From positions 2,100,001-2,132,000 of the forward strand of contig NC_016803.1 of assembly GCF_000189295.2 (NCBI RefSeq): 32,000 nucleotides of DNA, given 5' to 3'. Shown here piece after piece: positions 20,669 to 25,768 of the stretch. The notes below the pieces were generated by a model. That model did not search any database. It was not told the origin of the DNA and saw nothing but the letters and a program-made list of their open reading frames with translations. The translations under genes and the position numbers were made by a program. The DNA is from Pseudodesulfovibrio mercurii. Its GTDB lineage: Bacteria; Desulfobacterota; Desulfovibrionia; Desulfovibrionales; Desulfovibrionaceae. How positions within the stretch are numbered: the stretch's first letter is position 1; every line of letters begins with the position of its first letter.

Positions 20669-22654
<1,986 letters not shown>

Positions 22655-22795
22655 CGAGATGCTCCTGATCTGTACGTTTCTTCGCCTCGCCCGCCTGGCA
22701 CGGGCCGCAACCCACTGGAATGCCGAGTCATGGCGGCTGTCCGCCGGTGACACCCCATCCTCTAGTGAATGGTCATGCGGACCGCTTCCTTTTTT

Positions 22796-22828
22796 AGGTG
22801 AACGGTAAAAATTGGGCAGGTGAACGGT
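22796..22828. promoter_or_regulatory. Exact 11-bp direct repeat aggtgaacggt x2 (22-bp period) upstream of acs
   Basis: Copies at 22796-22806 and 22818-22828 are identical. They lie about 140-175 nt upstream of the acs start. Confidence 0.3.
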
Positions 22829-22849
22829 TTGGCGACGGTGAGCGGTGCG

Positions 22850-23059
22850 GGAGGCGGCTTGCAATAGCGGCGCATCTGCACATTTTTTCCGGCCGGGCCA
22901 ATCCTCACGTAGACGGCTATCGCTGCTGTCGTCATCTCTAAGACCGAGCAAGCTCGGCCTAAGAGCTGAGGCACGCTGCGGTTGCCCCGGCCGGAAGAAA
23001 ATGCACAGCTGCACCACTCCCGCAAGCCTAGTGCGAGCGCGGTAAAAGAGCCGCTGTCC
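22850..23059. repeat. Type-1 structured intergenic repeat, copy C, carrying a 54-nt nested insertion (22920-22973)
   Basis: Same arms as copies A and B. The loop is interrupted after agacggcta by tcgctgctgtcgtcatctctaagaccgagcaagctcggcctaagagctgaggca, which is flanked by cgctgc on both sides. Confidence 0.8.
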
Positions 23060-23097
23060 TCATCCGTAGGGCTCGAAGACTCGCCAACGGCTGAAGG

Positions 23098-23748
23098 CCC
23101 GGAGGCATTCCTAGTCCAGCGCGTGGTTGCCGACGTGGACGACAACGTGATAAAGGAGATCCTGTACGACCCCTTCGGCGGGATCATCGAGGACACCAAC
23201 CCGAGCCTGCGCCTGCCCATCGGCTTCGCGGGCGGCCTCCACGACCGGGACCTGGGGTTCGTCCGATTTGGCTGGCGGGATTACGACGTCAGGACCGGCA
23301 GGTGGACCGCGCCGGACCCCATCGGGGACAAGGGCGGCGACCCGGACTGGTAGGATACTGTTTGGACGACCCGATTAATGGAATTGATCCATTGGGGCTG
23401 TTCCGATTCGGCAAAAAAGGACTGTGGATTCTGCCCGGTATAGGCACCGACGGCTCTACCGCAGACAAAGGAAACTATGAACTCAAACATGAGCACGGTT
23501 TCTATGAGGATGGTACGGGAGACAATGTCGGTTTGTTTAAAGATGGTTTAAAACGGGATCAAGATATCACCAAATACACGCTTGACGAAACACACTTTGG
23601 CGACAAACGAATGAGACAGGCTGAAGAGAGTCTTGATCCGGGAGATTACAAGCTGTGCAAGTGGGGAGGCAACTCCAATAATTGCCAGGATTATGCCGAT
23701 GCTCTGCGCGAACGTTATCGATTCTTACGCACTGCGGAAAAGCACTGA
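23098..23748 (+). pseudogene. Orphan Rhs/YD C-terminal core fragment plus variable toxin tip (cassette 1), disrupted by a 1-nt frameshift at about 23352
   Basis: Frame A reads ...ILYDPFGGIIEDTNPSLRLPIGFAGGLHDRDLGFVRFGWRDYDVRTGRWTAPDPIGDKGGDPDW then TAG (23351-23353). The -1 frame continues (Y)GYCLDDPINGIDPLGL plus a 115-aa tip ending at TGA 23746-23748. There is no upstream Rhs body and the 5' boundary is uncertain. Confidence 0.75.
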
Positions 23749-23797
23749 TGCAACAACAGCCGGGGGACAATTGTCTCCCGGCTGAAAAAGGATTTTT

Positions 23798-24334
23798 ATG
23801 AAAGGGTTAAAGGTATTCCTTCTCTGCCTAGTTCTCGGAGGCGTGTTTTTTTATAATTCCAACTGGTTTCAGTCATTTTTCCTGTACAACCGCTTTTACG
23901 AGAACATAGTTGATGTACCATTCGATGTGACAAAAAAAGGGGAGACGATTTCCTTTTCACTCAAGCACAAGTTCAATACTTGCTATGAATTGAATGTGGG
24001 AGTTCTTGATAAATACATTTTTCATCGTGGCATTGTTGGTCCAGGGGCTTTGAGGTATCGGTTCATTTCAAGAGGTCAAATCATCAAAGAAGGACTCACC
24101 TTTCCAGCGGAACGAAATCATCTCACACTTTATCGAGGGGTTACTTTAATAACCATACTGGTATTCGATCTCCCCTTCCCCGGCGCAGGGAGTGATGTAT
24201 CGCTGGAATTGACAGTAGATACCCCCATGACCTTTCTCAATGAACATGCAGGCAAGATTAGATGCAGCATCCGGCCCAACTATAGTGCAGACAGGGGGGG
24301 CTGCGATGAGGAATTACGAATAGATTCGATATAG
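23798..24334 (+). CDS. Candidate immunity protein for cassette 1 (N-terminal signal/anchor, exported)
   Basis: 178-aa ORF in AT-rich DNA immediately after the toxin tip, with AAGGA 6 nt upstream of the ATG. N-terminal hydrophobic segment LKVFLLCLVLGGVFFY. I recognise no family. Confidence 0.6.
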   Translation: MKGLKVFLLCLVLGGVFFYNSNWFQSFFLYNRFYENIVDVPFDVTKKGETISFSLKHKFNTCYELNVGVLDKYIFHRGIVGPGALRYRFISRGQIIKEGLTFPAERNHLTLYRGVTLITILVFDLPFPGAGSDVSLELTVDTPMTFLNEHAGKIRCSIRPNYSADRGGCDEELRIDSI

Positions 24335-24947
24335 CTCCGAGAGACCCCTTCGGGAGATCATCGAGGACACCAACCCGAGCCTGCGCCTGCCCCTCGGCTT
24401 CGCGGGCGGCCTCCACGACCGGGACCTGGAGTTCGTCCGCTTCGGCTGGCGGGATTATGACGTTCGGACCGGCAGATGGACCGCGCCGGACCCCATCGGC
24501 GACAAGGGCGGCGACCCGGACTGGTACGGCTACTGCCTGGACGACCCGGTGCACGGGGTTGATCCGGCGGGGCTTCGGACAGATATTGTCTATTACGACG
24601 GCCGAGTAGGCCACGTCGCGGTAGCTCCAGGTGGGGGAACCCCGGTTGGAAAATCTCCTGTCGGAGAAAAAGGATTGAGCGCGACAAAAGGGGTTTATAA
24701 AAAGGAAACAGGGGTTCCTATTTCAACAATCGAACTTGATACTACCCCAGAGCAAGAGTCGTACATGAAAGAATACCTGGATAGAGCCCAGAAAAGTAAT
24801 AGTGTCATATATGATTTGATAGATAGGAACTGTGTCAAAGGTGTTAATGACGTACTCGAGTCAGGTGGCTTGGATACCCCTAAGGGGATAAAGGGCATTC
24901 ACCCAGCAACATATATGGACAAATGGAAAAAACTTCTTGACAAATAA
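24324..24947 (+). CDS. Orphan Rhs C-terminal core fragment plus variable toxin tip (cassette 2); intact frame but no canonical start upstream of the core motif
   Basis: Open frame from 24324. It reads ...IIEDTNPSLRLPLGFAGGLHDRDLEFVRFGWRDYDVRTGRWTAPDPIGDKGGDPDWYGYCLDDPVHGVDPAGL plus a 123-aa tip. The first ATG/GTG/TTG in frame is GTG 24549, inside the DPxGL motif region. Confidence 0.7.
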   Translation: MRYSSERPLREIIEDTNPSLRLPLGFAGGLHDRDLEFVRFGWRDYDVRTGRWTAPDPIGDKGGDPDWYGYCLDDPVHGVDPAGLRTDIVYYDGRVGHVAVAPGGGTPVGKSPVGEKGLSATKGVYKKETGVPISTIELDTTPEQESYMKEYLDRAQKSNSVIYDLIDRNCVKGVNDVLESGGLDTPKGIKGIHPATYMDKWKKLLDK

Positions 24948-24981
24948 CACTGGCGGCGGGGAACCACCGCCAGCATTAATT

Positions 24982-25299
24982 ATGAAAAAATTTATACTCT
25001 CATTTTTGACTATTGGATTTTTACTGAGTTGCATCAGTGATATCTTGTTACGCAATAAAATTGCATATCAAATTCCGTTCATATTAAATCCATATACATA
25101 CATTCATTTGGCAACATATGGATATGATTCTATTTTAATTATACTATATGATGTTCTAGCGTATGCTATAAACATCTCCGTCTATACATTATTCGGTTAC
25201 TTGATTGCCGTTGGTAACCGCTTCCATCAGTTTAAATACTTTTTTGTTGCTCTATTTGTCGTATATCAAATTGTTGTTGTAAGCATATTCTGGCACTAA
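24982..25299 (+). CDS. Candidate immunity protein for cassette 2 (small polytopic membrane protein)
   Basis: 105 aa from ATG 24982 (the ORF track begins at TTG 24937). Three to four hydrophobic helices (FILSFLTIGFLLSCI, ILIILYDVLAYAINISVYTLFGYLIAV, FFVALFVVYQIVVVSIFW). Very AT-rich. Confidence 0.6.
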   Translation: MKKFILSFLTIGFLLSCISDILLRNKIAYQIPFILNPYTYIHLATYGYDSILIILYDVLAYAINISVYTLFGYLIAVGNRFHQFKYFFVALFVVYQIVVVSIFWH

Positions 25300-25428
25300 C
25301 CATCGCGCCATCTCTGGCCGCGCCGGGGTTGTCCCGGTTCGGCAACAGGTTCTGGTTTCGTTGCCTTTGCCCGCTTTTTCCTGACAATCGTCCTCAAGAT
25401 ACGCCCTTCCCGCAGAGGAGGCCGGACC

Positions 25429-25638
25429 ATGCTTGATCAGCCCCGATTCCCCCTGTTCGTCATTGGCGACAATGAAGCCCTCGTCTTTCTGAACCAGCGG
25501 GACGTGGGGGTGTTTGTGGAGCGCGACGACGTGGCGGACGGCATCTACCACGGATTCGACTTTGATGGCCGCGCCCTCAACTTCGCCTCCGGCCTGGGCC
25601 AGCTCACCAGAGGCGGCCTGCTCCTCGAAACAAACTAA
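25429..25638 (+). CDS. Hypothetical 69-aa protein
   Basis: ATG preceded by GAGGAGG 7 nt upstream. GC-rich codon usage like the host genome. No motif recognised. Confidence 0.45.
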   Translation: MLDQPRFPLFVIGDNEALVFLNQRDVGVFVERDDVADGIYHGFDFDGRALNFASGLGQLTRGGLLLETN

Positions 25639-25689
25639 CCACGCCCCCGGCACACCCACCCGCGCCCGCACGCCCCCCGCGAAGCGGCG

Positions 25690-25758
25690 CCAAAAAGCTT
25701 TGAAGGGGAGTCCAGAGGGGAAACTTTCTCGAAAGTTTCCCCTCTGGCCGCCGGAGGC
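25690..25758. repeat. Type-2 palindromic intergenic repeat, copy C (5'-truncated)
   Basis: Has ccaaaaagctttgaagg, then the palindrome ccagaggggaaactttctcgaaagtttcccctctgg (25712-25747), then ccgccggaggc. It ends 10 nt before the kinase stop codon. Confidence 0.8.
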
Positions 25759-25768
25759 ATTCCTCCCC

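Follow-up and report, generated by a model that had tools for sequence, protein, structure and literature searches.

Two orphan Rhs toxin cassettes of Pseudodesulfovibrio mercurii predicted to encode permuted papain-like hydrolases with envelope-located immunity partners

Introduction

In the 2012 catalogue of polymorphic toxins, all of the papain-like entries had the cysteine before the histidine, and permuted NlpC/P60 toxins were absent (PMC3482391). Toxins of the permuted type were biochemically characterised only in 2024-2026, as Tox-Act1, an effector of the T6SS (type VI secretion system) of Salmonella pathogenicity island 6 (SPI-6) that was described with its immunity protein Imm-Act1 in PLoS Biology in 2026 (PMC12994826). 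In this study, we describe two toxin domains, called tip 1 and tip 2, which end two orphan Rhs C-terminal cassettes in the sulfate-reducing deltaproteobacterium Pseudodesulfovibrio mercurii. They lie side by side in a window of 32,000 nucleotides (contig NC_016803.1, positions 2,100,001 to 2,132,000 of the forward strand), and all coordinates below are those of this window. Both tips carry a histidine followed by an Asn-Cys pair. On balance, we favour the explanation that both are permuted NlpC/P60 hydrolases of the LRAT/PPPDE type that act on membrane lipids, and that their immunity proteins reside in the envelope; the cassettes themselves are orphans.

Tox-Act1 is a permuted NlpC/P60 enzyme whose toxicity is abolished by the substitutions H43A and C151A; it is toxic only in the periplasm and cleaves phosphatidylglycerol (PG) and phosphatidylethanolamine (PE) to lysophospholipids (PMC12994826). 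It is related to DUF4105/Lnb and TseH, and two transmembrane helices are present in Imm-Act1 (PMC12994826). The table of its homologues holds many RHS-fused proteins with occasional matches to DUF4105 or Peptidase_C97, and there was no Desulfovibrio among the entries of the homologue tables examined (PMC12994826). The permuted branch of the superfamily is known to bind lipids (PMC3142127).

Tox-Act1/Imm-Act1 is the closest characterised analogue of the cassettes in the window, to which we liken it by its published description only. As in the tips, a polymorphic-toxin domain with a permuted core and an essential His...Cys pair shows weak similarity to DUF4105, TseH and PPPDE and escapes detection by standard hidden Markov models. 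The Tox-Act1 clade shares fusions to the RHS core and stray DUF4105 and Peptidase_C97 matches with the family of tip 2, and it also has a small membrane-embedded immunity protein directly downstream, as do tip 2, whose partner Imm2 has three to four hydrophobic segments, and its relatives in five of five loci. In contrast, the partner of tip 1, Imm1, is unlike Imm-Act1 in that it is predicted to cross the membrane once and to place about 150 residues in the periplasm as a domain, and the cassettes here are orphaned and silent. A tblastn search of plasmids for a sequence of the Tox-Act1 clade gave no match.

Results

The tip 1 toxin domain (23398..23748, plus strand; G+C content 0.48) and the tip 2 toxin domain (24573..24947, plus strand; 124 residues; G+C content 0.45) both start directly after a DPxGL motif, DPLGL (23386-23400) and DPAGL, respectively; residues of tip 1 are numbered from 23386. 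The initial annotation had placed a histidine and a later Asn-Cys pair in each tip, and the four codons proved to be exact. In tip 1, the proposed catalytic histidine H35 is encoded by CAT (23488..23490, plus strand) and the proposed nucleophile C100, within an N-N-C-Q-D motif, by TGC (23683..23685, plus strand). In tip 2, the corresponding H14 is encoded by CAC (24612..24614, plus strand) and C87 by TGT (24831..24833, plus strand). An asparagine precedes each cysteine (AAT in tip 1 and AAC in tip 2), and the peptide strings were found in the translations. The histidine and the cysteine are 65 residues apart in tip 1 and 73 in tip 2.

When the sequences were shuffled with their composition preserved, H-x(40-90)-NC appeared in 3.9% of the shuffles of tip 1 and in 0.67% of those of tip 2. 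Family-wide conservation is a stronger test than the shuffles. Among 35 aligned relatives of tip 1, H35, Y88, N98-N99-C100 and a candidate third catalytic residue, N47 (23524..23526, plus strand), were at least 90% conserved, and the motifs of the family read HEHGFYEDG...N...NNCQDYAD. In the trimmed alignment of 23 sequences for tip 2, C87 and Y80 were invariant and H14 was at least 90% conserved; this family also has a conserved T-T-P-E-Q block before the helix ahead of the Y-x-L...N-C motif. The histidine and the cysteine thus belong to the most conserved residues of both families (35 sequences for tip 1 and 23-30 for tip 2), and the conserved histidine comes before the conserved cysteine in both tips, as in the permuted superfamily. 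Because of this conservation, the His...Asn-Cys pattern is confirmed as real and beyond chance. A metal-binding reading of the H-E-H of tip 1 was rejected because H37 alternates between His and Gln in the 35 relatives and is often Gln.

The fold of tip 2 was predicted with high confidence. An AlphaFold2 model built from an alignment of 30 sequences had a predicted local distance difference test score (pLDDT) of 94.9 and a predicted template modelling score (pTM) of 0.90, and DSSP placed H14 at the first residue of a strand (14-19) and C87 at the first residue of a helix (87-97). Foldseek ranked Aichivirus 2A first in the PDB (probability 0.90-0.93, E 0.04-0.06), together with parechovirus 2A, H-REV107, PLAAT3, PLAAT4, HRASLS2 and AdPLA, and the top matches were exclusively H-box/NC (LRAT-like) proteins. 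The PLAAT/H-REV107/LRAT proteins and picornavirus 2A (PF04970) are therefore the best structural neighbours of tip 2. In profile alignments by hhalign, for which the PLAAT3 and DeSI-1 query sequences were identical to PDB 7zom and 2wp7, H14 fell on H23 of PLAAT3 and H38 of DeSI-1, and C87 fell on C113 and C108, respectively. The second histidine of PLAAT3 (H35) is aligned to the conserved G26 of tip 2, and because of this glycine tip 2 looks like a compact His/Cys dyad enzyme. PLAAT3 differs from tip 2 in this second histidine, and its C-terminal membrane anchor is absent in the tips; PLAAT and LRAT proteins as a whole also differ in that the tips of the window stay below the Pfam threshold and occur in a bacterial, Rhs-fused toxin-immunity context.

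Matches of the tip 2 relatives to Pfam pointed to the same group of folds. PPPDE was found in 17 of the 23 relatives (best E 1.3e-6), Lnb_N/DUF4105 in 12, LRAT in four and TseH in two, all of them sub-threshold; the best Lnb_N match reached 21.9 bits against a cut-off of 22.2, and the Lnb_N matches covered only profile positions of about 100-150. The PPPDE/DeSI proteins (PF05903; 2wp7 and 3ebq) resemble tip 2 in the order of His and Cys, in the Y-x-L...N-C-x-x-F helix motif and in a dyad without a third residue, but all of the scores are below the threshold and the immunity proteins here point to an envelope target. The N-terminal domain of Lnb (DUF4105, PF13387), which matches 12 of the 23 relatives, is another permuted NlpC/P60 domain, although Lnb is a housekeeping enzyme with a membrane domain of its own. 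In a profile search of the PDB, the NC helix of tip 2 was placed on residues 127-184 of 6v98, a 'cysteine hydrolase' that we take to be TseH, with a non-significant E value. TseH, with TsiH in Vibrio cholerae (PF25218), is an antibacterial T6SS effector with a permuted NlpC/P60 fold like that proposed for the tips; it differs in being a stand-alone effector rather than an Rhs tip, and the alignment to 6v98 (E 0.5) and the two PF25218 matches of tip 2 relatives (E 0.017-0.2) do not amount to membership. Taken together, the model and the alignments show tip 2 with a predicted permuted NlpC/P60 fold.

The assignment of tip 1 is probable, though less secure. Its AlphaFold model had a pLDDT of 81.6, and residues 16-30 were unreliable. 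The order of the elements (strand-strand-strand-...-helix-helix) is PLAAT3-like; by DSSP, H35 lies on strand 34-41 and N47 on strand 47-51, and C100 opens the last helix (100-119). At the level of family profiles, tip 1 aligned to tip 2 (hhalign probability 86%, E 5e-6) and to PLAAT3 (63%, E 7e-5), with NC on NC. This modifies the initial view that the two tips are otherwise dissimilar, which holds for the single sequences (pairwise BLASTP E 0.02, over an irrelevant stretch) and not for the profiles of their families. Eleven of the 35 relatives of tip 1 matched LRAT in Pfam (best 1.1e-5) and eleven matched PPPDE. One of them (P0027) exceeded the LRAT cut-off (PF04970, 26.1 against 24.3 bits), only over profile positions 77-115; neither tip of the window was among the Pfam matches to LRAT. 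A phmmer search of both tips against the PDB found nothing meaningful, and in the PDB profile search with the tip 1 alignment (A1) the matches were dominated by the Rhs core part. Foldseek against viral structures gave only non-significant matches for tip 1, among which permuted papain proteins (YaeF/YiiX and the kobuvirus polyprotein) were scattered.

The spacing between H35 and N47 in tip 1 is 12 residues and equals that between H23 and H35 of PLAAT3, a protein of the family (PF04970) that relatives of tip 1 match. From this spacing, we suggest that tip 1 probably uses a His-Asn-Cys triad of the LRAT/PLAAT type. Its domain, including the N-terminal half, would be LRAT-like in fold. The histidine and the cysteine of each tip would be adjacent in three dimensions, as implied by the superposition on PLAAT and 2A proteins in Foldseek and by the equivalences in hhalign. 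The shared permuted papain-like architecture put forward at the outset is thus largely supported, with a confident model and H-box/NC neighbours for tip 2 and with a weaker case for tip 1, whose structural match was non-significant. None of the profile alignments or structure predictions pointed to an unrelated fold.

Each tip is followed by its own candidate immunity gene. Imm1 (23798..24334, plus strand; 178 residues; G+C content 0.43), the candidate cognate of tip 1, has a basic N-terminus, one N-terminal hydrophobic segment by hydropathy, about 150 soluble residues thereafter and an LPFP motif. Imm2 (24982..25299, plus strand; 105 residues; G+C content 0.30), the candidate cognate of tip 2, has three to four hydrophobic segments by hydropathy and an I/L-N-P motif. 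The initial description of one partner as anchored by its N-terminus and of the other as polytopic is therefore retained, and the proposed envelope location holds and extends to the loci of the relatives. Neither Imm1 nor Imm2 matched a family in Pfam or NCBIfam.

The imm1 family was found directly downstream of tip 1 relatives in all six loci examined (L001, L003, L004, L009, L010 and L011); the homologue in Pseudodesulfovibrio sp. zrk46 (L003) was 43% identical (E 1e-53), and that in L001 was frameshifted. Small polytopic membrane proteins of 61-123 residues were found downstream of tip 2 relatives in all five loci (L002, L005, L006, L007 and L008), and several of them share the I/L-N-P motif. 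The gene after the tip 2 relative P0038 in L005 encodes a protein 31% identical to Imm2 (pairwise E 2.5e-8, computed without composition correction), and a BLASTP comparison of Imm2 with the downstream protein of L002 was not significant. Homology within the imm2 group is thus tentative and would run through the L005 intermediate. The co-occurrence itself was shown at these loci, each toxin family having an immunity family of its own.

Tip 1 had 36 relatives in the database (P0001-P0036), mostly from Pseudodesulfovibrio, Paucidesulfovibrio, Desulfovibrio and metagenomes; all were at most 228 residues long, and none of the 36 formed part of a full-length Rhs protein, even where the contig was of megabase scale. 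So far, the tip 1 family is found in orphan or stand-alone forms only. For tip 2, a word-indexed homologue search gave no match, an exhaustive search of representative sequences gave 30 relatives, and a renewed search with the family profile (A3) gave only seven proteins; a contig scan with the narrow tip alignment (A4) gave one locus, and the genome of the window was not among its results. Several tip 2 relatives form the end of longer proteins that match Pfam RHS or RHS_repeat.

In small stand-alone relatives of both families, P0065 for tip 2 (L007:632-2487) and P0036 for tip 1 (L009:694-2558), a Sec signal peptide is fused to the last 20 or so residues of the Rhs core. Each of the two genes is directly preceded by a Transglut_core2 (transglutaminase-like) gene and followed by a gene for a membrane or membrane-anchored immunity protein. 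This is a second, non-Rhs context of delivery, and the Sec signals are consistent with activity outside the cytoplasm, at a periplasmic site. A Desulfovibrio metagenome-assembled genome (L002:514-4720) contains a row of three orphan Rhs tips that differ in their toxins, the third of them being the tip 2 relative P0040, and after every tip comes a polytopic membrane protein, 98-265 residues in length.

The two cassettes have one design, in which a remnant of the Rhs core is followed by the DPxGL motif, the toxin tip and the immunity gene. Rhs core remnant 1 (23108..23353, plus strand; G+C content 0.67) was in the list of open reading frames (ORFs); it contains VVADVDDNVIKEILYDPFGGIIEDTNPSL and ends with GDKGGDPDW at a TAG codon. 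This stop was made by a deletion of one nucleotide, as the DNA alignment of the two cores reads TGGTA-GG in core 1 against TGGTACGG in core 2, with the deletion lying within 23340-23360. As a result, tip 1 is out of frame with its own core and is a pseudogenised orphan. Rhs core remnant 2 (24345..24572, plus strand; G+C content 0.71) contains DPFG..IIEDTNPSL...DPDWYGYCLDDPVHGVDPAGL and shares the reading frame of tip 2, which is open from 24324 on; the first start codon in this frame is only a GTG at 24549. The core on tip 2 scored 54.9 bits against TIGR03696 (Rhs_assc_core; cut-off 32.5), so the architecture of an Rhs C-terminal cassette, with a TIGR03696 core, DPxGL, a toxin and a downstream immunity gene, is present. 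A full-length Rhs shell with YD repeats and an N-terminal delivery domain is not attached, and only core remnants of about 60-80 residues are found. With a frameshift ahead of tip 1 and no start codon for tip 2, both cassettes are true orphans.

The core remnants form a direct repeat of about 171 nucleotides with about 95% DNA identity (23182-23352 and 24356-24526), which codes for the end of the Rhs core and is a plausible substrate for swapping or deletion of cassettes by homologous recombination. The island at about 23000-25300 is a low-G+C exception in an otherwise high-G+C window (about 0.63-0.72, with flanks of about 0.67). In composition, imm2 deviates more strongly than any other part of the window (G+C content 0.30, compared to about 0.67 for the genome), which indicates a recent foreign origin of the gene. 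Within the stretch 22650-25770, the array sits between two housekeeping genes. Upstream of it lies the acetyl-CoA synthetase gene (acs, minus strand), which is itself preceded by genes for a 4HBT thioesterase and a catalase; on its other side is a Ser/Thr kinase gene (minus strand). Neither a full-length rhs gene nor a secretion-system gene was found nearby in the window.

Discussion

We propose that the region 23108-25299 is a horizontally acquired, low-G+C array of two orphan Rhs C-terminal cassettes, the toxins of which would be circularly permuted NlpC/P60 papain-like cysteine hydrolases. In each toxin, the cysteine of the Y-x-L...N-C motif, which opens a late helix, would be activated by a histidine on an early strand. 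Tip 2 would be a compact, PPPDE-like dyad enzyme without a third polar residue, and in tip 1 the catalytic residues would probably be a His-Asn-Cys triad spaced as in LRAT/PLAAT. The enzymes would most likely attack fatty-acyl esters on the periplasmic side by forming an acyl-thioester at the cysteine, and would act as phospholipases A or acyltransferases on phospholipids or possibly on lipoproteins. Acting on the periplasmic face of the membranes of the target cell, they may cause a build-up of lysophospholipids and lysis. Imm1 would have an inner-membrane anchor and a domain in the periplasm, Imm2 would be embedded in the membrane, and each would neutralise its own toxin. The lipid substrate and the acyl chemistry are proposed by analogy with the permuted members PLAAT/LRAT, Lnb, Tox-Act1 and TseH, and periplasmic action is what we infer from the immunity proteins and the Sec signals.

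Several observations weigh against this explanation. The sequences of the window pass no Pfam gathering threshold and gave only sub-threshold matches in Pfam and NCBIfam; for PPPDE (PF05903), with a threshold of 29.2 bits, tip 2 itself scored 16.8-18.3 bits and tip 1 scored 11.7. The matches at the level of sequence cover only the half with the NC helix, and the half with the histidine was reached only at low hhalign probability (23-27%) or through the models. In the Foldseek searches, the matches of tip 2 were marginal (E 0.04-2, template modelling score 0.41-0.54), and the top PDB match of tip 1, human PPPDE1 (3ebq), was non-significant (E 1.3, template modelling score 0.46), with 2wp7 also listed. 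Histidine and cysteine are 108 residues apart in Tox-Act1, further than in either tip (73 residues for tip 2, 65 for tip 1). Moreover, Rhs-borne toxins usually act in the cytoplasm (PMC12994826). For tip 2, the structural matches are marginal singly and consistent jointly.

Among the other explanations, the one that survives best is that the tips are permuted NlpC/P60 enzymes that cut peptidoglycan, as amidases or endopeptidases, and are blocked by immunity proteins facing the periplasm. Cutting of peptidoglycan has been proposed for TseH and is established for the canonical NlpC/P60 effectors of the T6SS, Tae/Tse1. In Pfam, relatives of tip 2 gave weak matches to TseH, Tae4 and Amidase_6, which are in line with such an activity, as is the periplasmic soluble domain predicted for Imm1, which is like that of the classical Tai/Tsi immunity proteins, and hydrolysis of the cell wall is the best-known activity of the superfamily (PMC3482391). 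However, the published permuted branch forms a hydrophobic pocket and acts on lipids (PMC12994826; PMC3142127). Cells intoxicated by Tox-Act1 lyse yet keep the shape of the sacculus, TseH has phospholipase activity, and the work on both favours a lipid over a peptidoglycan target (PMC12994826). In addition, the best structural neighbours of tip 2 are PLAAT phospholipases/acyltransferases and viral 2A proteins rather than peptidoglycan hydrolases, and a polytopic membrane protein such as Imm2 would be unusual as the immunity partner of a peptidoglycan hydrolase. We consider a peptidoglycan target unlikely.

It is less probable again that the tips are isopeptidases or proteases of the PPPDE/DeSI type. 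PPPDE proteins are eukaryotic or viral isopeptidases that act on proteins, and to our knowledge bacteria have no ubiquitin or SUMO substrate for them. A protein substrate in the cytoplasm would suit the usual site of action of Rhs toxins (PMC12994826), PPPDE is the most frequent Pfam match among the relatives of tip 2 (17 of 23), tip 2 has no third polar residue, like the DeSI dyad enzymes, and PPPDE1 was the top PDB match of tip 1. On the other hand, the PPPDE matches were all sub-threshold and were confined to the NC helix, which is common to LRAT and DUF4105; both immunity families were located in the membrane or periplasm in every locus examined, and some relatives carry Sec signal peptides.

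The Lnb domain works on acyl chains at the periplasmic face. We see a slim chance that the tips, in a similar way, remove or transfer the acyl chains of lipoproteins and thereby disrupt outer-membrane biogenesis. The Lnb_N (DUF4105) matches of 12 of the 23 tip 2 relatives, the best just under the cut-off (21.9 against 22.2 bits), would agree with this, and the authors of the Tox-Act1 study raised the possibility for their own clade (PMC12994826); but Tox-Act1 cleaves PG and PE in vitro (PMC12994826), and tip 1 matches LRAT and PPPDE, not Lnb_N. A coincidental motif, with another fold and mechanism such as a metal-binding H-E-H in one of the tips (above all tip 1) or in both, seems very improbable. 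The structural matches of tip 1 were non-significant, its residues 16-30 had low confidence, and a metal site could be seen in its HEHGFYEDG block, which looks invariant. However, H37 is replaced by Gln in many relatives that keep H35 and C100, C100 opens a helix within the N-N-C motif, the family repeatedly matched two related permuted-papain Pfam families, one of them above the threshold, and its profile aligns to those of tip 2 and PLAAT3. Given the published behaviour of permuted members and the topology of the immunity proteins, these explanations are less likely than permuted hydrolases that act on membrane lipids.

With this explanation, the two tips most likely join the recently defined Tox-Act1/TseH class of toxins as new members, and tip 1 together with imm1 is possibly a distinct sub-family. 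More tentatively, the tip 1 family could be a distinct and undescribed LRAT/PLAAT-like toxin clade with a His-Asn-Cys triad and with a new single-pass periplasmic immunity fold in imm1, which would form a second, independently recruited lipid-targeting permuted NlpC/P60 system beside Tox-Act1, and the orphan arrays would then be mainly acquired immunity islands and not reservoirs of toxins; we regard this broader proposal as possible, though doubtful. The mechanism is not new, and a known class is extended incrementally. The locus adds two mutually divergent permuted toxins side by side in one organism and two different envelope-located solutions to immunity; for one of these, imm1, no family has been described.

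In their present form, the toxins cannot be expressed from this genome, because tip 1 carries the frameshift of one nucleotide and tip 2 is missing both a start codon and a delivery region at the N-terminus. The cell may nevertheless remain protected by the immunity genes. The orphans are presumably a reservoir for recombination with a full-length rhs gene located elsewhere, an immunity island that has been retained, or both. The cassettes pose the question of whether a compact dyad enzyme (tip 2) and an enzyme with an LRAT-spaced triad (tip 1) both act on phospholipids, how periplasmic and intramembrane immunity proteins neutralise such enzymes, and what purpose stand-alone arrays of orphan cassettes serve. 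The toxin-immunity pairs described here are ready-made for testing these questions.

Stand-alone arrays of Rhs fragments and immunity genes were also seen in five other loci (L001, L003, L004, L005 and L010), beside hisG, groEL and other genes. Instead of classical orphan clusters, such arrays may represent immunity islands that were acquired. In the public annotation of the window, it appeared that only a hypothetical protein of 60 residues was called from tip 2 (P0037, MKEYLDRAQ..., 24765-24947), without the half that bears the histidine; over a fragment of 60 residues, tip 2 has 100% identity to a P. mercurii hypothetical protein. After imm2, an ORF at 25429-25638 (plus strand) was 32% identical (E 6e-12) to an ORF of 113 residues (L003:7251-7592) that likewise follows an orphan array in Pseudodesulfovibrio sp. 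zrk46. The ORF of the window overlaps a high-G+C stretch with several alternative ORFs, and it could represent either an additional immunity gene or one associated with the island.

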